A stretch of DNA of 64,000 nt. Source: Thermoleophilaceae bacterium. GTDB lineage: Bacteria; Actinomycetota; Thermoleophilia; Solirubrobacterales; Thermoleophilaceae. The stretch lies in the NCBI GenBank assembly GCA_036259535.1, contig DATABO010000065.1, forward strand, positions 13,624-77,623, read 5' to 3'. A program made the translations under genes and the position numbers. How positions within the stretch are numbered: position 1 is the first letter of the stretch; each line of letters begins with the position of its first letter. The notes below the pieces were generated by a model that saw nothing but the letters and a program-made list of their open reading frames with translations, did not search any database and was not told the origin of the DNA. Of this stretch, positions 18,594 to 38,273 are shown in pieces.

Positions 18594-18631
18594 GCGCCCG
18601 TAGCTCAGTGGATAGAGCGCTTGCCTCCGGA
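18594..18631 (+). pseudogene. 5' half of the host tRNA-Arg(CCG) gene (attL junction); downstream 18632-18666 is a decayed 3'-half-like sequence
   Basis: GCGCCCG TA GCTC AGTGGATA GAGC G CTTGC CTCCGGA. The following CCAGG..CAAGG CTCCAAT CGAGC CGGCCGT cannot form the anticodon stem, T stem or acceptor stem. The matching 3' half is at 38231-38273. Confidence 0.8.
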
Positions 18632-18727
18632 CCAGGAGTGCCAAGGCTCCAATCGAGCCGGCCGTTTCAAGCCAGGAGCGGGATTGCCCTGGTTGCGCCT
18701 GTTGCCCTGACGGGCTGAAACAGGGCT

Positions 18728-18751
18728 TCTGGCCAAAACTCTGGCCAAAAC
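18728..18751 (+). repeat. Tandem 12-nt repeat TCTGGCCAAAAC x2 (candidate integrase arm-type sites, P' arm)
   Basis: A perfect tandem copy 97 nt right of the attL core. A near-identical pair (GCTGGCCAGAAC TCTGGCCAAAAC) lies at 38102-38125, 106 nt left of the attR core. Confidence 0.5.
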
Positions 18752-18828
18752 CCCCGGCGATCGCCGGGGGTCGCCGGGCATCCGGCGATGCCGGCGCGGC
18801 GGTGTGGCGACCGGCGGAGGCCGGTCGC
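18751..18828 (+). promoter_or_regulatory. Palindrome/hairpin cluster upstream of xis (operator candidates)
   Basis: CCCCCGGCGATCGCCGGGGG is a perfect 20-nt palindrome (18751-18770). GCGACCGGC-GGAG-GCCGGTCGC is a 9-bp stem (18807-18828), 20 nt before the xis ATG. Confidence 0.35.
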
Positions 18829-18847
18829 GTCTTCTTGGGCACGGCCG

Positions 18848-19195
18848 ATGCAGCGTGTCGTCGACACCCCCGCCCCACTCTCAGAAGACCGCTTGGCGGA
18901 GGCGATCGCCAGCAAGGTCGTCGCGATGGTCCGCGACGAGCTGGGCTGGGCGCGCGACGAGGAGTGGATCGACGCCAAGGAGGTCGCGCGACGCTTCGGG
19001 CTGTCGCGCTCCTGGGTCTACGAGCACTCGGGGCTGCTCTGCGCACGACGTGCCGGGACTGGCAAGCGGCCGCGGCTGCGGTTCGAGCCGAGCGTTGTCG
19101 CCGCCGCCCTGCGCGACGCGCAGGCGGCTGCGGAGCGCGAGCCGGACCTCGGCGACCTGGAGATCCACGTTCCTCGGGTGCGCTCCAAGGCGTGA
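18848..19195 (+). CDS. xis: Excisionase / MerR-like HTH DNA-binding protein (Xis-type)
   Basis: WIDAKEVARRFGLSRSWVYEHSG...KRPRLRFEPSVV is a typical excisionase-family HTH. Lies immediately upstream of the integrase. ATG at 18848. Confidence 0.75.
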   Translation: MQRVVDTPAPLSEDRLAEAIASKVVAMVRDELGWARDEEWIDAKEVARRFGLSRSWVYEHSGLLCARRAGTGKRPRLRFEPSVVAAALRDAQAAAEREPDLGDLEIHVPRVRSKA

Positions 19196-19230: not shown

Positions 19231-20706
19231 ATGGCACGACCCAAGACAGGCAACGTCCGCACGACGGTCCGGACGGACGGCACTAGCTACTACTCGGCGC
19301 GGATCACCGTGGACGGCGATCGGGTGCCGTTGGAGCTCGGCGACGAGCGCGACGGTGTGACGAAGCTGATGGCCGAGGCCAAGCTCGACCGCATCCTCGA
19401 GCAGGTCCGGCTCGGGACGTGGGACGGCGAGGGCCGCAAGGGCGGCCCTCCCGGCCGCGAGCCGGAGCCGCTGATGGTCGGCGCGGCGGCGCGGTTCCTC
19501 GACTACAAGCGTGGCTGTCAGCTGCGCGACTCGACGATCGAGCGGATCACCTGGGCGCTTGACGGCCACCTCGTTCCGTTCTTCGGCAAGAAGCGGCCGA
19601 GCCAGATCACGCCGGAGCTGGTGGAGCGCTACGCGGCCCATGAGGTCGCCCAGCGCACACGGATCGCGGAGCTGCGCGAGGACGGGAAGTACCTGACCGG
19701 GCCGCGCGGCGGCGCGATGCGCGAGATGTCGAACGTGTCGATCAACCGGACGCTGACACTGCTCGCCGAGCTGCTGGAGTGGACGCGCGGCAAGGGCTGG
19801 GTCCGCGGCGCCAACGCGGCCGTGGGCTACCGGCTCAAGGAGGCGCAGCGGATCACCTTCGCCTTGGAGCCCGACGAGCTGGCCGACCTCCTGGCGGCCG
19901 TGGCGACGCCACGGCCGGCGCGTCGGCCGAGCGCTCGCACGGCCGCGCTGATGGAGACGTGCGTGCGGCTCCGCGACGAGGACTGCCTGGAGTGGAAGGC
20001 GATCGGGCGGCTGCTGGAGATCGCGCCCAGCACCGCCCACTACCACTACACGCGTGCGAAGTCGGCGGCCGAGCGAGTCGACGTCCGCCGCGCGGAGGTC
20101 GATCACATCTTCCTCTCGGTGCTGGCCGGCTCGGGCGCGCGAGTGACCGAGCTGTGCAAGCTCGACGTCGAGGACGTCGACCTCCCCCACTCCAAGTTCC
20201 TGATCGCTGACTCCAAGACGCCGACGGGCATCCGCGAGGTCAAACTGACCCCGGCGCTGGTCGAGCTGGTGCGGCGCTACTTCGCGTCGCGGCACGACCT
20301 CGCTCCGAACCAGCCGGCGTTCCCGACCTCCAGGGGCACGCGACGCACGAAGGACAGCGTGAACAAGCAGGTGCTTGCGCCTGCGATCGGGCTCGCGAAC
20401 GAGCTGCGCGCCGAGCGCGGCGAGCGCAAGCTGCCGCACGTGACGCCTCACGTCATGCGCCACACCTACATCACCCTCGCCTTCGAGGCCGGCTACTCGG
20501 TGCCGTATGTGATGCAGCAGGTCGGTCACCGTGAGCCCGGCACGACGATGAAGATCTACGCCAAGGTCTCCGCGCGGCGGGACCGCGAGGTCCACGACAC
20601 GGCGTTCGACCAGCTGCTCGTCGACGCGGCGCAGCCGCGCCCGGTCGAGCCGGAGGTCGAGATCGAGTCGATCGAGCCGATCGGGCGAGAGCTGGTAGCG
20701 GCGTAG
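19231..20706 (+). CDS. int: Tyrosine-type site-specific integrase (491 aa)
   Basis: Catalytic-domain motifs GARVTELCKL (Arg), HVMRHTYIT (H-x-x-R) and GHREPGTTMKIYAKV (His/Tyr). Adjacent to the tRNA junction. Confidence 0.95.
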   Translation: MARPKTGNVRTTVRTDGTSYYSARITVDGDRVPLELGDERDGVTKLMAEAKLDRILEQVRLGTWDGEGRKGGPPGREPEPLMVGAAARFLDYKRGCQLRDSTIERITWALDGHLVPFFGKKRPSQITPELVERYAAHEVAQRTRIAELREDGKYLTGPRGGAMREMSNVSINRTLTLLAELLEWTRGKGWVRGANAAVGYRLKEAQRITFALEPDELADLLAAVATPRPARRPSARTAALMETCVRLRDEDCLEWKAIGRLLEIAPSTAHYHYTRAKSAAERVDVRRAEVDHIFLSVLAGSGARVTELCKLDVEDVDLPHSKFLIADSKTPTGIREVKLTPALVELVRRYFASRHDLAPNQPAFPTSRGTRRTKDSVNKQVLAPAIGLANELRAERGERKLPHVTPHVMRHTYITLAFEAGYSVPYVMQQVGHREPGTTMKIYAKVSARRDREVHDTAFDQLLVDAAQPRPVEPEVEIESIEPIGRELVAA

Positions 20707-23439: not shown

Positions 23440-23955
23440 TTACCGAGCGGGGTCGACCAGGCGCTCGATGGTGAGCATTGGGACCATCAGCTTGCGACGG
23501 TCAACGTCGAGCGCGTCGAAGCCGAAGTGGCTGTAGAAGTCGGCAGCGTTGGCGTCGATCGCGCTGACGGCCAGGCCGCGGATGCCGATGTGCTGGTTGG
23601 CGCGCAGGACGCGCTCAAGCGCGTGCGCCAGCAGCTTGGCGCCGATCTTGCGGCCCTGGTGCTGGCGATCGACGGCGAGACGGGTGAGCAGGCACGCCGG
23701 GATCGGGAAGTGCGGCGATGTGCCGCTCCTGAGCGCGGCCGTCGCCTCGGCCTGTCTGATCTCGCTGGCGACGAGCGAGTAGTACCCGACGACAACGTCG
23801 CGGTCGTCTACCGCGAGGTAGGTGCGTGCGGTGTCACGACGCTCGTTCTGGCCTGCGTATTGGATGAGCCATCGGTCAAGCGCTGGCTGCCCGCTGTCGA
23901 AGCCGCGGACGGTGTAGCGCTTGTCGTAGGGCTCAATCCGCTCAGGCGCGCTCAA
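23440..23955 (-). CDS. GNAT-family acetyltransferase toxin (TacT/AtaT-like)
   Basis: 171 aa. FDSGQPALDRWLIQYAGQNERRDTARTYLAV...RLAVDRQHQGRKIGAKLL is typical of GNAT toxins paired with DUF1778. TTG start overlaps the antitoxin by 14 nt. Confidence 0.85.
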   Translation of the reverse strand: MSAPERIEPYDKRYTVRGFDSGQPALDRWLIQYAGQNERRDTARTYLAVDDRDVVVGYYSLVASEIRQAEATAALRSGTSPHFPIPACLLTRLAVDRQHQGRKIGAKLLAHALERVLRANQHIGIRGLAVSAIDANAADFYSHFGFDALDVDRRKLMVPMLTIERLVDPAR

Positions 23956-24238
23956 GGCTCTGCCTGCCGGCGCTCGCCATCAGGCGGCGCAGGCCGTCCT
24001 CGTAGCGCTCGGGATGGTCGAGCGCATCGAGAACCCGCTCGGCGTGGTCGTCGTCGACGACGATCTCCTGCGGCTCGCCAGGCTCGTCGCTCGTGTTGGA
24101 GACGAGCAGCTCGAGCGCGGTGTCGAGCTCGGCCTCGGGGAGGTCGTCAATGACGCGATGTAGCTTCTCGCGGGTCGTCACGGTGTCCCCCAGTCTATCT
24201 GCTGTGGCCGCCATCGGCGACTCTTTCACAATGGGCAT
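23942..24238 (-). CDS. DUF1778-like antitoxin (98 aa) with atypical acidic N-terminal half
   Basis: The C-terminus VVDDDHAERVLDALDHPERYEDGLRRLMA resembles the DUF1778/TacA C-terminus. ATG preceded by AAAGGAGA. Directly upstream of the GNAT toxin. Confidence 0.7.
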   Translation of the reverse strand: MPIVKESPMAATADRLGDTVTTREKLHRVIDDLPEAELDTALELLVSNTSDEPGEPQEIVVDDDHAERVLDALDHPERYEDGLRRLMASAGRQSLERA

Positions 24239-27870: not shown

Positions 27871-28656
27871 TTAGGCCGCTGCATCGGGCTGGGGCGCGTC
27901 GTCGAGGCTGTCGATGAGGCGGTAGCCGACCCCGCGCACCGAGACGACCCATCCGGTCGCGCCGGCGGCGGCGAGCTTGCGGCGCAGCCGGCAAGCGTGA
28001 GCGTCGACCGTGCGGGTCTGACCGATCGTGCGGTAGCCCCAGACGTCGCGCAGCAGCTCGTTCTTGGTCTTCACGCGTGCCGGCTCGACGGCGAGCGCGG
28101 CGAGCAGCGCGAGCTCCATCCGCGTGAGGTTCAGCGGCTTGCCATCGAACGCCGCGGTGAGCGCGGCCTTGTCGATCGTCAGCGCCTCGCAGTCGATGGT
28201 CGCCGGGGCCGGGGCCGGGTCGACGGGCGCGGGGTCAGCCCTCGGGGCGTCGGTGTCGGCCGGTGCGAGGCGTGGCCCGCGGCGCAGGATGGCGAGCAGG
28301 CGGGCGGTGAGCTCGGCCTGTCCGATCGGCTTCGCGCGGAAGTCGTCAGCGCCTACGAGAAAGCAGCGCGTCAGGGCAAGCGCGTCGTCGTCCTCGGCGA
28401 GTACGAGCACTGGCGTCGCGTCGGGCTGCCCGGTGATCTCGCCACGGCGAAGCTGCTCGATCAGGCGTGCGTTGGTGCCGGCGCCGGGGAGGTCGCCGAG
28501 CACGATGATGTCGGGGCTGGCGACCCGGATGCCGGAGCGGAGTCGGTTCTCGGTCGAGGCGCCCGCGACGGCGAAGCCGTCGGTGATGAGGAAGCGGGCG
28601 AGCTGCTGGCGCAGGTTGCGGTCAGCGTCCGCGATCAGCACGGTTGCGCGGTTCAT
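27871..28656 (-). CDS. OmpR/PhoB-type response regulator (261 aa), orphan
   Basis: Receiver domain (VLIADADRN...DDFRAKP) plus a winged-helix output (LTRMELALLAAL...TVDAHACRLRRKL...VRGVGYRL). ATG at 28656 with a GAAGGAGAAG SD. No histidine kinase on the element. Confidence 0.85.
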   Translation of the reverse strand: MNRATVLIADADRNLRQQLARFLITDGFAVAGASTENRLRSGIRVASPDIIVLGDLPGAGTNARLIEQLRRGEITGQPDATPVLVLAEDDDALALTRCFLVGADDFRAKPIGQAELTARLLAILRRGPRLAPADTDAPRADPAPVDPAPAPATIDCEALTIDKAALTAAFDGKPLNLTRMELALLAALAVEPARVKTKNELLRDVWGYRTIGQTRTVDAHACRLRRKLAAAGATGWVVSVRGVGYRLIDSLDDAPQPDAAA

Positions 28657-28750
28657 CGAGTCTTCTCCTTCGGGAGTGGCCCCGCCCGTCGCGGGGCCGT
28701 CCCGCCGCCGTCCGCACCCCTTGGGTGCGAAAATCAAGGCGGGCGGACGC

Positions 28751-31210: not shown

Positions 31211-34200
31211 TCAGCGCGAGAGGCCGGGCGCCTCGGGCTGAGGCGTGAGGTCGGGTGTCGGGTCGACGTCGGGTGTATCGAACAGCAGCTCGGCGAGCTT
31301 GTGGGTGTGCTGCCAGTCAGCTGCTTGGCGGCCGGTGAGGCTGGTGGGGTCGTGGTCGTGCGGGTATTCGCCGTATTGGAGGCGGTAGGACTCTTGAGCG
31401 GCGACGGCTTGCTCCCAGCGCTCGCGGTCGGTGGGCGCCTCGGGCCGCTGGCCGAGCTGGCGCTCGATGGCGGGGTCGGTGTCGAGCGCGGCGATCCGTG
31501 TCGCACGCCAGTGGGCGTGCGCGCGGCGTGCGGCTAGCTCGCGCTCGGCGGCGGTGGCGTCGACGATCTCCATTTCGTGCTGGTCGATGACCGTGGCGGG
31601 ATCGACGGAGGCGGTGTCTGTGCGGTCAGCGACCTCGGCGCGGGCGGCGGTGAGCGCATGGTCGAGCTGGTGGATGCGCTGGTTGAGGGTGGCGCGGCGG
31701 TCGCGGTCGCGGCGGGCGAGCCCGTCGCGCTCCTGGCGGGCGTTCGCGAGCAGTCCGTCAAGGTGGGCGGCGTTGGCGGCGGCGCGCTCGAGCAGCTCGG
31801 CGTCGCGGGCGCGGCGAGCATGACGTGGGATCGTGGAGAGGATTCGCTCGCCGCGGTCGCGGATCTCGATGAGCTGGGCGGTGGTGAGCTGGCCGAGGTC
31901 GGCGTCGATCTCGCTGACGTCGACCGCGAGCTGCTTGGCGCGCTCGACGCCGAGGGCTCGCTCTAGCTCGTCGTAGAGGGGCTGGTCTTGCAGGCCGGGG
32001 AGCTGCGCACGGTCGAGGTCTGCGTCCTGGCCGACGTTGATGTAGAAGCGCGAGCTGTCGGTGTGACGCGACGAAGCGACGTAGCCGAGCTCGCGGGCGA
32101 GGTCGGGCGAGCCCAAGACGAAGGTGTCGCCGATCGTCATGCCCTGGGACTTGTGGACGGTCTGGGCGTAGCCGTGGCTGAGATGGCCGTCGGCGAGGTA
32201 GTCGGCGGGCAGGATCACCTCGGGGCCGGCGTCGAGTGCGGCGTGCAGCTCGCCGGCCTGGTGGTCGGTGCGGGTGACGGTGGCGCGGTTGCCGTTTCGC
32301 AGCCTGTGGCTGCCCTCGTCGGTCGTCGCGACCCACTGGTTGCGCAAGGCGAGCACGCGATCGCCTTCGGCGAACAGCCGGTCGCCGACGACGAGGGCGG
32401 TGCTGTCGTCGAGGTCGCCGGCCGCGACACGCGCCTGGCGGGCGAGGTCATTGAGGGCGTGGGCCTCGTCGCGGGTGGCGGTGAGCATCTGCGTCTCGAC
32501 CTGCCCATGCTCGCGGGCGGCGACGAACCAGTCGGCGACGAGCTGATGGAGCTGGTCGTCGGCGCCCTGGCATGGGACGAGCCGGCCGTGCTGGTCGTAG
32601 GCGGCGACCCACTCGGAGATGTCGCCGTGGCGGAGCTGGTCGAGCGCCTCGCGGTCCCAGGCGTGCTGTTGGCGGTAGACCTCCGTCAGCTCGATCGTGC
32701 CGAGCCGGTCGGCGAGAGCGGCGAAGCCGCCGCCGGCCTCGACGGCGGCTAGCTGGCGCTCGTCGCCGATCAGCACGACCTTGGCGTTGGCCTGGGCCGC
32801 GTGGTCGAGCAGCCGGGCCATGCGGCGGGTGTCGACCATCCCGGCCTCATCGACGACGAGGACGGTGCGCGCACCGAGTGTCCAGTCGCCGCCGCGGTCG
32901 AGGTCTTGGAGCAGTCCGTGGACTGTGTAGCTGTCGATCCCGCCACGGGCGCGCAGCTCGTCGGCGGCCCGGCCGGCGAGCGCGGCGCCGACGACGCGGT
33001 GCCCGGCCTGCTCCCACAGCTCGCGCGCCGCGTCGATCGCCGTCGTCTTGCCGGTCCCGGCCCTGGCGCGCACGACCTCGACCCCGTGACCGGACGCGAC
33101 GAGCGATCGGACCATCCGCTGCTGCTCGTCGGAGAGCACTAGCCCGCCGGGCCGCCGCGCGAACAGGTCGTCGCCATCGGCGAGCCGGACGACTCCCGCT
33201 CCCTCCCCCACCCTGCCGAGGGCCTGGTCGACCATCGCGGCCTCCACGGAGAGCATGTCCGCCGTGGTCAGCGCGGCCTCTCTGCCCGCTCCGGCAGCCC
33301 GGCCGCGCACCCGTGGCCCGGCGGCCTGCTCACCGTCAACGACCACGACCTGATCGGAAGCGATCAGCCGATCGGCGATGTCCTCGATCCTCTCGATCGA
33401 CCCGCCCCGGCCATGTGCGGCGGCGAGGTTCTGGACGACCTGGCGGCGGTGGAAGGTCGACCGCTCGCTGGTCAGTCCCTCGGCGGCGATCAGCTCGCCG
33501 ATGGTCTCGCCGATCTCCAACCGGTCGAGGTCGCGGAACTCGCCACGGCCGATCGCGCCGGCCAGCTCGTCGGGTCCGAATCCGTGCTCTTGGGCGACGG
33601 CCCGCCACTGGTCGCGCTGCTCGGCGAGGTCGAAGGACTCCTTGCCCTTGCGTGTCGACAAGGCGGCGATCTCGGCCTCGCGGGCACTCGTCCGGCCGGC
33701 TCGGTCGAGGGTGTCGAGGATCTGCTTGCGGCGCTTGGACAGCGCGAGCGCGAGCGGCCGGGGAACCCCAGCGATCTCGGCGGCGCCCTTGTGGACATCG
33801 GTCCACTGGACGCCGAGCTCGCGGGTCAGCCGCTCGCGCAGCTCGGCTTGGAAGACGTAGCCGGCGGCCATCCGGTGCTGGTAGAGGTCGCGGGCGTCGA
33901 GGGTCCGCCAGGCGTCCTCGACGCCTTGGGCGGGGTCGCCGCAGCGGGTCATGTTCGCGACGAGGAAGTGGACGTGGATGTGCGGGTCGCCCTCGCGGGA
34001 GAAGCGGTGCGGGAACGCCGCGCCGATGAACCCCTCCCCCTCCAGCGGGATGTGTCCGCCGCGCCCGGCGCGCGATGTGCAGGCGTGCCGCTCGAGGTAG
34101 CCGAGCGCGGCCCGGCCGGCTCCGTGGGTGGCCTCCCACACCGCCTCGGCGACCTGCGGCTGGCCGTACTCGTCGGCGAGCGCCCAGAGCGTCGAGACCG

Positions 34201-34492
34201 ACTTCGGGACGGCCATCTGGAGGTCGATGCCCTTGACTGCGTGCTCGCCGGGAGGGCGGCCGAGCTGGTCGCCGCTGACCGGGTGGCGGCACTCGAACAG
34301 GGCTTGCAGCTCGCCGTCTTGGACCTGTCCGGCAAGGCCGAGGTTCGCGGCTCCCCGGCCGGTCCAAGTGCCGGGCGCCTCGCCCTTGCCGGAGTAGTAG
34401 TCCTCGGCGCCCTGGGCGACCTGCTGGGTGTAGTAGTCGGGGGTGCGCCAGTGGCCTCCCCCGCGTCCTCCGATCTTGCCGATGGTGAGCAT
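31211..34492 (-). CDS. MobF-family relaxase/helicase (TrwC/TraA-like, 1093 aa)
   Basis: MLTIGKIGGRGGGHWRTPDYYTQQVAQGAEDYYSGKGE is a TrwC-type N-terminus with catalytic Tyr candidates. His triad in REGDPHIHVHFLVAN. RecD-like helicase Walker A in RARAGTGKTT. The track ORF to 34699 has a Pro-rich false extension. Confidence 0.93.
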   Translation of the reverse strand: MLTIGKIGGRGGGHWRTPDYYTQQVAQGAEDYYSGKGEAPGTWTGRGAANLGLAGQVQDGELQALFECRHPVSGDQLGRPPGEHAVKGIDLQMAVPKSVSTLWALADEYGQPQVAEAVWEATHGAGRAALGYLERHACTSRAGRGGHIPLEGEGFIGAAFPHRFSREGDPHIHVHFLVANMTRCGDPAQGVEDAWRTLDARDLYQHRMAAGYVFQAELRERLTRELGVQWTDVHKGAAEIAGVPRPLALALSKRRKQILDTLDRAGRTSAREAEIAALSTRKGKESFDLAEQRDQWRAVAQEHGFGPDELAGAIGRGEFRDLDRLEIGETIGELIAAEGLTSERSTFHRRQVVQNLAAAHGRGGSIERIEDIADRLIASDQVVVVDGEQAAGPRVRGRAAGAGREAALTTADMLSVEAAMVDQALGRVGEGAGVVRLADGDDLFARRPGGLVLSDEQQRMVRSLVASGHGVEVVRARAGTGKTTAIDAARELWEQAGHRVVGAALAGRAADELRARGGIDSYTVHGLLQDLDRGGDWTLGARTVLVVDEAGMVDTRRMARLLDHAAQANAKVVLIGDERQLAAVEAGGGFAALADRLGTIELTEVYRQQHAWDREALDQLRHGDISEWVAAYDQHGRLVPCQGADDQLHQLVADWFVAAREHGQVETQMLTATRDEAHALNDLARQARVAAGDLDDSTALVVGDRLFAEGDRVLALRNQWVATTDEGSHRLRNGNRATVTRTDHQAGELHAALDAGPEVILPADYLADGHLSHGYAQTVHKSQGMTIGDTFVLGSPDLARELGYVASSRHTDSSRFYINVGQDADLDRAQLPGLQDQPLYDELERALGVERAKQLAVDVSEIDADLGQLTTAQLIEIRDRGERILSTIPRHARRARDAELLERAAANAAHLDGLLANARQERDGLARRDRDRRATLNQRIHQLDHALTAARAEVADRTDTASVDPATVIDQHEMEIVDATAAERELAARRAHAHWRATRIAALDTDPAIERQLGQRPEAPTDRERWEQAVAAQESYRLQYGEYPHDHDPTSLTGRQAADWQHTHKLAELLFDTPDVDPTPDLTPQPEAPGLSR

Positions 34493-34824
34493 CGGAGGGG
34501 TAGACGCAACCTTGGTGCAAGTGTGTGATCCGTTGGGCGGTCCCGTAGGGAGCGGCTGCTGTTGTGGAGGGGTGGGAGCCGAGCGGAGCGAGGCGAGCGG
34601 GCCGGTCAGAAGTGGTGTCGTGCTGTGGCGGTGAGGGTGCGGACGGTTCTGAAGCGGTGCGGTGGAGCTGGCGGGTGGGCGCGTCAGACTGGGGAACAAG
34701 TGTTCGTGTCGTGGTCGACAGTCGAGCCGGTCCGGAGCCGGTGAGCCGCCATCCCGATCCGGTGGACGCGTACCGCCAGGCAGTCGCCGAGAACCGGCCG
34801 CCGGCTCAGATGTCAGGCCGGCTT

Positions 34825-34938: not shown

Positions 34939-35006
34939 CAGCCCCCGCGCTTGGCCCGAGCATGTGCTGAGAGGACGGCGCGGGCGATCCGAGAAGCCCT
35001 GTCCTC

Positions 35007-35044
35007 GGCAGGACAAGCGCCCGTAGCTCAGTGGATGGAGCGCC
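35007..35044 (+). pseudogene. Third tRNA-Arg(CCG) 5'-half copy (internal att-like junction)
   Basis: GCGCCCGTAGCTCAGTGGATGGAGCGCCGCC CTCCGGA, then GCAGCAGCGCC..., which cannot pair with it. It shares the CCTCCGGA core with 18624, 37997 and 38231. Confidence 0.6.
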
Positions 35045-35556
35045 GCCCTCCGGAGCAGCAGCGCCTGTCGCCTGCGGCGGGCGTCGGGCCTCAGTGATCG
35101 GCTACCTCGAGGCTCACTCCGGTCTCGCTCCCAGCGCTTGGCATGGCATTCGGTGCAGGCCGAGCATCGGTATGGGGAAGGACTACCGGCTCCGTGGGAG
35201 GTATGTCGCTTTCGAGCATCGAGGTTCTCCTCTCCGCTTCTGGCCTCGTTGTCCCAACGAACACCACCAGCCGGCGCATCGGGTCTCCCATCGCTCTCTT
35301 CGCTCGCTGACTTGGCTCCTACCCTTGGCCGGTCGAAACGACGCATTCTCGTTCCGCCGCCACGCGTCTCCCCGATGTCGGGAGGTCGTCCGACGAACGA
35401 GCGGCGGATTGCTCTAGTCGACTGAGTCGCCAGCGAAGACGCTGAGATCGGTGCTCACGACGGAGCGGTGGGTCGTCTGGACCTTGATCTGCCCGTGCCC
35501 AGTCCGCGACCCCGTGCCAGGACAACACGGAAGCGTCTACACTCGTGCGACGTGGC

Positions 35557-37966: not shown

Positions 37967-38039
37967 GCGCCCGTAGCTCAGAGGATAGAGCGTCCGCCTC
38001 CGGAGCGGAAGGTCGCTGGTTCGACTCCAGCCGGGCGCG
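37967..38039 (+). tRNA. tRNA-Arg (anticodon CCG), intact, carried inside the insertion
   Basis: GCGCCCG TA GCTC AGAGGATA GAGC G TCCGC CTCCGGA GCGGA AGGTC GCTGG TTCGACT CCAGC CGGGCGC G. All four stems pair perfectly. 73 nt, CCA not encoded. Confidence 0.95.
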
Positions 38040-38101
38040 TTTCCGGGCGGGCTCTCGGCGGTCGTGAGGGCGTTGTCACGGCCGCCGGGAGGCCGGAAAT
38101 C

Positions 38102-38125
38102 GCTGGCCAGAACTCTGGCCAAAAC
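38102..38125 (+). repeat. Tandem 12-nt repeat GCTGGCCAGAAC TCTGGCCAAAAC (candidate arm-type sites, P arm)
   Basis: Matches 18728-18751 (22/24 by hand), including the trailing CCCC(C)G. Lies 106 nt left of the attR core. Confidence 0.5.
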
Positions 38126-38230
38126 CCCCGTAAACGCCGTCGATCCGACGCGATATGATGGCCGGACGATGACACTGAGCGCCTCCGATTTGCCTGCAAA
38201 TCGGCGCGATTCGAACCTAGCTGACGCGGT

Positions 38231-38273
38231 CCTCCGGAGCAAGAGGTCGCTGGTTCGAATCCAGCCGGGCGCG
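38231..38273 (+). pseudogene. Displaced 3' half of the host tRNA-Arg(CCG) gene (attR junction)
   Basis: C CTCCGGA GCAAG AGGTC GCTGG TTCGAAT CCAGC CGGGCGC G. GCAAG complements the CTTGC of the 5' half at 18594-18631. Upstream of the core there is no D arm or acceptor. Confidence 0.8.

Follow-up and report, generated by a model that had tools for sequence, protein, structure and literature searches.

In the attP of phage lambda, whose target is not a tRNA gene, the arm sites differ from the core sites and lie on both sides of them, with a tandem P' set adjoining int and the xis gene adjacent. Lambda has five arm sites, of which P1 and P2 are not adjacent and P'1-P'3 follow one another with a period of 10-11 bp, and the orientations of the arm sites and the positions of the IHF, Fis and Xis sites have been mapped. 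Arm-site binding by the integrase has been shown experimentally for mycobacteriophage L5, whereas the sites described here are putative. Among Cluster K mycobacteriophages, pairs of putative arm-type sites of about 11 bp flank the attP core; the pairs of L5 and Giles are in direct orientation, and Pixie has a pair and a triple, also in direct orientation (PMC3203893). Such pairs are also present in phages that disrupt a host tRNA gene and supply a replacement tRNA, a lifestyle termed tRNA-dependent lysogeny (PMC10865867). We describe a similar layout in the window (the whole 64,000-nt stretch of DNA analyzed). As in L5, Giles, CrimD and Pixie, the integrase is a lambda-like tyrosine integrase with an N-terminal arm-binding domain (here predicted), and as in L5, Giles and Cluster K, attP lies just upstream of int, overlaps a tRNA and has its crossover in or near the anticodon loop. 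In contrast to the mycobacteriophages, the motif is GG(C)CAAAAC with a 12-bp period, which is also slightly longer than that of lambda P'1-P'3, and the carrier is a relaxase-bearing integrative mobilizable element of Thermoleophilia/Solirubrobacterales. A short core and pairs of arm-type sites are shared with the phages of tRNA-dependent lysogeny (Fionnbharth/K4, Cluster L; PMC10865867), and because the common core is so short (8-9 bp) the host tRNA is not rebuilt. Unlike those phages, this is a mobilizable element with its replacement tRNA beside the P arm and a site pair at P' distance from it.

The element spans ~19.6 kb between the two halves of a tRNA-Arg(CCG) gene and is inserted at the anticodon loop. 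The host 5' half, forming the B side of attL, is found at 18594..18631 on the plus strand and carries the anticodon-stem strand CTTGC (18620-18624), which pairs with GCAAG in the host 3' half on the B' side of attR (38239..38273, plus strand). Joining 18594-18631 to 38239-38273 gives exactly the intact tRNA-Arg found at the syntenic locus of a complete genome of the same genus (G015). The 8-bp common core in the anticodon loop, CCTCCGGA, is located at 18624..18631 in attL and 38231..38238 in attR, both on the plus strand, and is the sole sequence common to both junctions and the intact tRNA; in an independent integration (L136/L147, see below) the shared core is CCTCCGGAG. Eight base pairs are too few to rebuild the host tRNA, and the same is true of the related loci L082 and L136. 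What follows the attL core is instead a degenerate tRNA 3' half brought by the element (18632..18665, plus strand), which starts the P' arm and rebuilds no tRNA: it resembles a tRNA 3' half (z=3.0, p=0.006) and recurs in L082 and L136, and ARAGORN called no tRNA at the attL hybrid. We also considered the intact tRNA at 37967 as the true attR of a shorter element. This was rejected, since the CTTGC stem of the half at 18594 pairs only with GCAAG of the half at 38239 and the joined halves reproduce the G015 tRNA exactly. Just left of the attR core, the minus strand of 38198-38230 also resembles a tRNA 3' half (TCCGGAG...GCTAGGTTCGAATC), so that attP resembles a long but imperfect palindrome with the palindromic CTCCGGAG in its middle.

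Between these boundaries the element carries an xis-like ORF, a tyrosine integrase, a response regulator (Response_reg/Trans_reg_C, 27871-28737), a TrwC relaxase (1162 aa, 31211-34699, minus strand), a relic tRNA half and an intact tRNA-Arg. Encoding a TrwC relaxase, the element is integrative and mobilizable. The xis-like gene (18788..19195, plus strand, 135 aa) has a predicted excisionase-type HTH, as Pfam matches it weakly to HTH_17 (E=0.0011, short of the curated cut-off), and its true start codon may lie further downstream. The integrase of 491 aa is encoded at 19231..20706 on the plus strand (PF00589, E=4e-18).

Two tandem pairs of 12-mers are read on the plus strand at 18728-18751 and 38102-38125, as the initial annotation had claimed. 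We refer to them as candidate arm-type sites P'1 (18728..18739, TCTGGCCAAAAC) and P'2 (18740..18751, TCTGGCCAAAAC), which are unique in the genome and conserved in the family, and P1 (38102..38113, GCTGGCCAGAAC) and P2 (38114..38125, TCTGGCCAAAAC), whose counterparts are P-arm pairs in G015, L128, L147 and further relatives. The left pair begins 96 nt to the right of the attL core and the right pair ends 105 nt to the left of the attR core, bearing out the suggestion that the pairs bracket the core in direct orientation at similar distances. Compared with one another, the pairs form a direct repeat of 28 nt (CTGGCCARAACTCTGGCCAAAACCCCCG, 27/28 identical) that runs 5 nt past the 12-mers and takes in a downstream ACCCCCG. 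The motif CTGGCCARAAC has four exact copies in the window; allowing up to one mismatch, there are seven copies compared with 0.96 expected from shuffles, a number reached by 0/100 shuffled sequences. Throughout the 2.12-Mb, 120-contig assembly these four are the only exact copies, where base composition alone predicts ~1.9 scattered copies. The tandem pattern, CTGGCCRRAACTNNGGCCRRAAC, was identified in 2/211 genomes of the family, this genome (G000) and G015, in both cases at the tRNA-Arg locus. Since the only genomic copies of the motif are these four, the sites do not represent an abundant generic repeat, which the initial annotation had named as the outcome that would speak against its reading. 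A normal chromosomal trailer of tRNA-Arg was likewise rejected, as no repeats are present downstream of the unoccupied tRNA-Arg in the related genomes G014, G016, G017 and G005.

To place the repeats in a wider context, we collected 79 loci with relatives of the integrase from species-representative genomes. The 11 closest relatives in this collection (L003-L013; 51-56% identity) lie next to tRNA-Ala, -Val or -His. Upstream of xis/int, eight of them have a tandem pair of the form N3-4-GGCAAAAC with a 12-nt period, which precedes int by 165-525 nt and is followed by CC and GATCG-type repeats. The pairs read GTGGCAAAACCCGTGCCAAAAC in L004, L005 and L007, TTGTGGCAAAAC (two copies) in L006, CCGGCAAAACGCCTGGCAAAAC in L008, GGTGGCAAAACGGGTGGCAAAAC in L009, TTCCGGCAAAAC (two copies) in L011 and TCGGCAAAACCCCCGGCAAAAC in L013. 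A variant pair, CGGGCCTTTTCC CGGGCCTAAACC, is found in L003 and L010, and L012 has no clear tandem pair. Upstream of integrases less than 40% identical, consistent tandem pairs were not found. The far ends of the relatives' elements carry two to three copies of the same word on the same strand (for example, the word is found at 246484 and 258163 in G224:C1, at 22365 and 7370 in G225:C4, and at 199 and 10296 in G223:C102). Beyond each far-end pair come first a conserved P-arm block and next a tRNA fragment that starts in the anticodon stem-loop. In the relatives, tRNA identity starts 102-126 nt after the P pair ends (105 nt in the window), and the P' pair lies 133-155 nt beyond that start (104 nt in the window).

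Overall, the design recurs on both arms of at least eight related elements, with integrases 51-65% identical, tRNA-Ala, -Val, -His or -Arg as targets and two to three tandem copies that lie ~100-150 nt from the anticodon-loop crossover. The family keeps the word G-G/C-C-(C)-AAAAC together with its 12-bp period, its strand and its distance, while flanks vary and linkers differ from element to element (TCT, TTGT, GGGT, CCGT, TTCC, CCCC, GCCT). Conservation of an 8-9-nt word within varying linkers and flanks fits a protein-binding site and not descent alone. The search of related elements for the motif, which the initial annotation had proposed as a check, thus found the same word, period and strand with similar spacing at both ends.

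Closer relatives, with integrases 90%, 65% and 64% identical, and an independent integration have GGCCAAAAC or GGGGCAAAAC sites in the same place. At 90% identity, L082 has the same degenerate 3' half, a 62-nt spacer and two copies of TCTGGCCAAAAC; the contigs break before the far end of its element. L160 (65%) carries GGGGCAAAATC and two copies of GGGGCAAAAC, and L158 (64%), which restores tRNA-Arg(CCG), has GGGCCAAATC, GGGCCAAAAC and GGACCAAAAC. Scanning metagenome contigs for the pattern turned up, in a single metagenome, an attL (L136) and an attR (L147) of such an element, which are probably opposite ends of the same integration. The order in L147 is intact tRNA, 62-nt spacer, pair, 106 nt, CCTCCGGAG and host 3' half.

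Integrase-less remnants are present in G015 and in L128/L130, and keep the pairs at att junctions only. In G015 (L094, C1 minus strand, 19700 to 16780) an intact tRNA-Arg precedes a remnant of 2.9 kb. It contains three repeat pairs and an internal junction resembling attP, and 780 nt of it share 87% identity with window 23441-24220. This remnant ends with a P pair, 106 nt, CCTCCAGAG and the tRNA 3' half, and the metagenomic L128/L130 are laid out alike. At L110 (G223:C102) and L109 (G225:C28), attR is directly followed by a second P'-type arm consisting of a tRNA 3' part, a spacer and a pair, suggesting that tandem arrays or remnants at a single tRNA are common in the family. The tRNA-Ala element L009 (G224:C1, ~246650-248000) keeps both pairs, and its int looks frameshifted near the 5' end and is probably a pseudogene.

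We next describe the protein expected to read these sites. The integrase consists of a predicted N-terminal arm-binding-type domain (residues ~9-61), a core-binding region and a catalytic domain in which R304, K329, H407, R410, H433 and Y443 (R-K-H-R-H-Y) are invariant in 25 homologues. The N-terminus is among the best-conserved parts of the alignment (R14, G17, R24, G29, R31 and the motif LGDERDG). In AlphaFold models of this domain, strands 9-13, 19-27 and 30-38 pack on helix 45-61 (pLDDT 85-92), the three-stranded sheet plus helix of the P4-like integrases. When the 70-residue model was compared with the PDB using Foldseek, the top three matches by geometry were all arm-type binding domains, from the HAI7 (3ju0), P4-like with attP DNA (3rmp) and HPI (3jtz) integrases, with TM 0.62-0.65, rmsd 2.0-2.4 Å and Foldseek E-values that are weak (0.16-0.7), as is to be expected of a domain this small. 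Identity to these P4-like arm domains is 14-18% and, unlike them, the N-terminus has no Pfam-level membership: no Pfam arm-binding family was found in it, so that the fold is assigned from TM-score and rank. Matches to the full-length model include XerA, Tn1549 Int and lambda Int (1z1b, 1z1g, 5j0n). We therefore regard the N-terminal 70 residues as a predicted arm-binding-type fold. The N-domain varies with the motif groups, a covariation that is inseparable from shared ancestry.

Taken together, the uniqueness of the repeats in the genome, their recurrence in the family and in relatives lacking Xis, and the modeled fold of the N-domain point to the four 12-mers as putative arm-type binding sites of a lambda-like heterobivalent tyrosine integrase. 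This is the reading of the initial annotation, with P and P' sites in direct orientation, and we consider it likely to be correct. We infer that the integrase binds these sites and that they are needed for recombination. P'1-P'2 lie in attL beside xis-int and P1-P2 in attR. Once the element is excised as a circle, the CCTCCGGA crossover core would have one pair ~100 nt away on either side, both in direct orientation. In the arrangement we propose, the pairs would be contacted by the small N-terminal domain and the core by the core-binding and catalytic domains, allowing the integrase to bridge arm and core and build the recombinogenic complex (intasome). Integrase and Xis together would determine which way the reaction runs, Xis being the likely directionality factor.

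The repeats might instead belong to the excisionase (Xis, the recombination directionality factor) and not to the integrase. Xis proteins typically coat tandem direct repeats and bend one arm, and the repeats here are tandem, direct and adjoin an xis-like gene, whose homologue is conserved upstream of int in eight relatives. However, known Xis sites are confined to one arm, between the arm sites and the core, and here the sites occupy both arms at similar distances from the core. Five relatives (L004, L005, L007, L009 and L012) have no Xis homologue within 10 kb, and four of these, L004, L005, L007 and L009, nevertheless keep the repeat pairs at both ends. Assigning the repeats to Xis would also leave the predicted arm-binding-type domain of the integrase without a visible target, and we regard this explanation as improbable. 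We give even less credence to the repeats being operators or iterons of some other element protein (OmpR-type, ParB-like or a replication initiator) unrelated to recombination, which we hold to be very unlikely. Proteins of the OmpR-type family do bind direct repeats with a 10-12-bp period and the element in the window encodes the Response_reg/Trans_reg_C protein described above, but the 10-kb element L005 has repeats at both ends and no such regulator. It carries an integrase, a HerA/TrwB-like ATPase, a TrwC relaxase and otherwise only small ORFs, of which just the integrase and the TrwC relaxase are common to the element in the window. Whatever the cargo, the sites always bracket the crossover core at ~100-150 nt, and in the integrase-less remnants of G015 and L128/L130 it is at the att junctions that they persist. 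As relatives without Xis and without the regulator keep the repeats, the integrase is the sole DNA-binding recombination protein common to the repeat-bearing elements.

The remaining explanation is that a duplication, or recombination between tandem elements, left the two 28-nt copies behind without a function and that they are alike by descent only. The near identity of the pairs, which extends into the downstream ACCCCCG, would fit such an origin, as would the tandem arrays and remnants seen in the family. Against this, the word, period, strand and distance recur despite differing flanks, linkers and tRNA targets, and beyond the first bases (ACCCCCG) the surroundings of the two pairs in the window are unrelated. 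A purely passive origin thus appears very unlikely, and we retain the arm-type reading.

Several further features surround the candidate arm sites. The 20-nt perfect palindrome and the 9-bp hairpin pointed out in the initial annotation are both present. The palindrome (CCCCCGGCGATCGCCGGGGG, 18751..18770) adjoins P'2, and that it is a site for a regulator or for Xis is a guess. Past the P' pair, every relative has two to three GATCG/AATCG-type repeats with a period of ~10 nt, and the same place in the window (18751-18800) holds the palindrome together with GGTCGCC and CATCCGG, so this stretch is a possible binding site for a second protein. The hairpin, GCGACCGGC-GGAG-GCCGGTCGC, occupies 18807..18828 on the plus strand (18807..18833 with the box), its 3' arm entering a family-wide box, (C/T)GCGTCT(T/A)C. 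This box precedes xis or int in the window, in each of the eleven relatives L003-L013 and in L082 and L136, and may serve the xis-int operon as promoter or operator. In the window it reads GGTCGCGTCTTC (18822-18833), overlapping the 3' arm of the hairpin, and it is found whatever the tRNA target. On the other arm, between the P pair and the core, there is an AT-rich inverted repeat, GATTTGCCTGCAAATC (38188..38203), which we guess to be a candidate site for a bending protein or Xis. Located 27 nt ahead of the attR core, it has the same sequence in four independent P arms (window, G015/L094, L128 and L147); a comparable block, AATGCAAAGCAATGCGCG...GCGCATGGAT, is present in the Ala, Val and His elements.

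The split host gene is replaced by an intact tRNA-Arg(CCG) borne by the element (37967..38039, plus strand), the only credible tRNA-Arg(CCG) in the assembly, which is ~80% complete. ARAGORN made two further Arg(ccg) calls, at C45:3874-3948 and C113:11616-11704, which were set aside because their poor cloverleaves in GC-rich sequence look like false positives. A homologous tRNA module is present at attR of L147, an independent metagenome contig, and has the same D-loop (AGAGG) and T-loop (TTCGACT) peculiarities and the same promoter-like upstream sequence (signature CCCT(A/G)TCCTCGGCAGGACAA), indicating that the module does travel with the element. The L147 tRNA (reverse complement of 545-617) and that at 37967-38039 differ in their anticodon stems and variable regions. 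This central part of the tRNA matches the tRNA halves at the junctions of L147 in the L147 copy and the tRNA-Arg of G005 in the window; gene conversion may have taken place around the core.

According to the initial annotation, the repeats begin 134 nt from the tRNA start on the left (18594 to 18728) and 135 nt from it on the right (37967 to 38102), which it took to suggest that attP evolved from a duplicated tRNA-containing unit. The distances are as claimed, and the duplication is supported only in part: the sequence after the attL core is a degenerate tRNA 3' half, and no homology was detected between the two 62-nt spacers (p=0.64). We attribute the equal spacing to the P' design of the family (tRNA 3' part, 50-90 nt, pair) together with the attL-like layout of the right-hand unit. 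This unit, with its promoter-like sequence, intact tRNA, 62 nt and pair, has the attL layout of the tRNA-restoring relatives L158 and G015. Its pair is also at the P position of the family, and the P-arm block that follows is conserved in G015 without a preceding tRNA. With an attL-like layout before it and a conserved P-arm block after it, the join between the two parts falls within the right-hand pair itself, and we conjecture that the unit arose when a P' pair recombined with a P pair in a tandem array.

The right-hand pair lies 105 nt upstream of the attP core and 97 nt from an identical CCTCCGGAG that the tRNA-Arg of the element carries in its anticodon loop, and 97 nt is exactly the P' distance of the family. 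Being at P' distance from this CCTCCGGAG, the pair could do double duty and form, together with the tRNA, a ready-made attL/attB-like landing pad for sibling elements, of which the relic at 35017 would be a scar; we put this forward as a doubtful but conceivable reading. If it is true, tandem accumulations of sibling elements could arise through integration at this pad. The relic is the 5' half of another tRNA-Arg allele (35017..35055, plus strand, stem CCGCC) and ends at the same core. In the region 34993-35065 of the window, the relic is preceded by the promoter-like CCCTGTCCTCGGCAGGACAA, which is nearly the same before the element-borne tRNA of L147 and resembles the sequence upstream of the L136 tRNA half, and is followed by ~10 nt of a further copy of the degenerate 3' half. 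Its sequence fits the insertion of a sibling element into an earlier element-borne tRNA, which would have left the relic behind. A captured flanking gene linking L136 to the relic was also considered and dropped, Pfam being empty on the left flank of L136.

The layout described here is already known from lambda and the mycobacteriophages and reveals no new mechanism; it is the host class and the relaxase-bearing carrier that differ. We know of no experimentally characterised recombination system in Thermoleophilia/Solirubrobacterales, soil bacteria that have received little study. Our analysis provides an attP map for a family of tRNA-targeting mobilizable/conjugative elements, comprising the core, two pairs of putative arm sites, candidate accessory sites, xis and int. 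Within this family the arm word GG(C)CAAAAC and the N-domain are near-constant while the core is directed at different tRNAs (tRNA-Arg, -Ala, -Val or -His), making arm versus core specificity a clear natural case of modular evolution. The attP map could also help in the design of integration vectors for bacteria of the Thermoleophilia/Solirubrobacterales.
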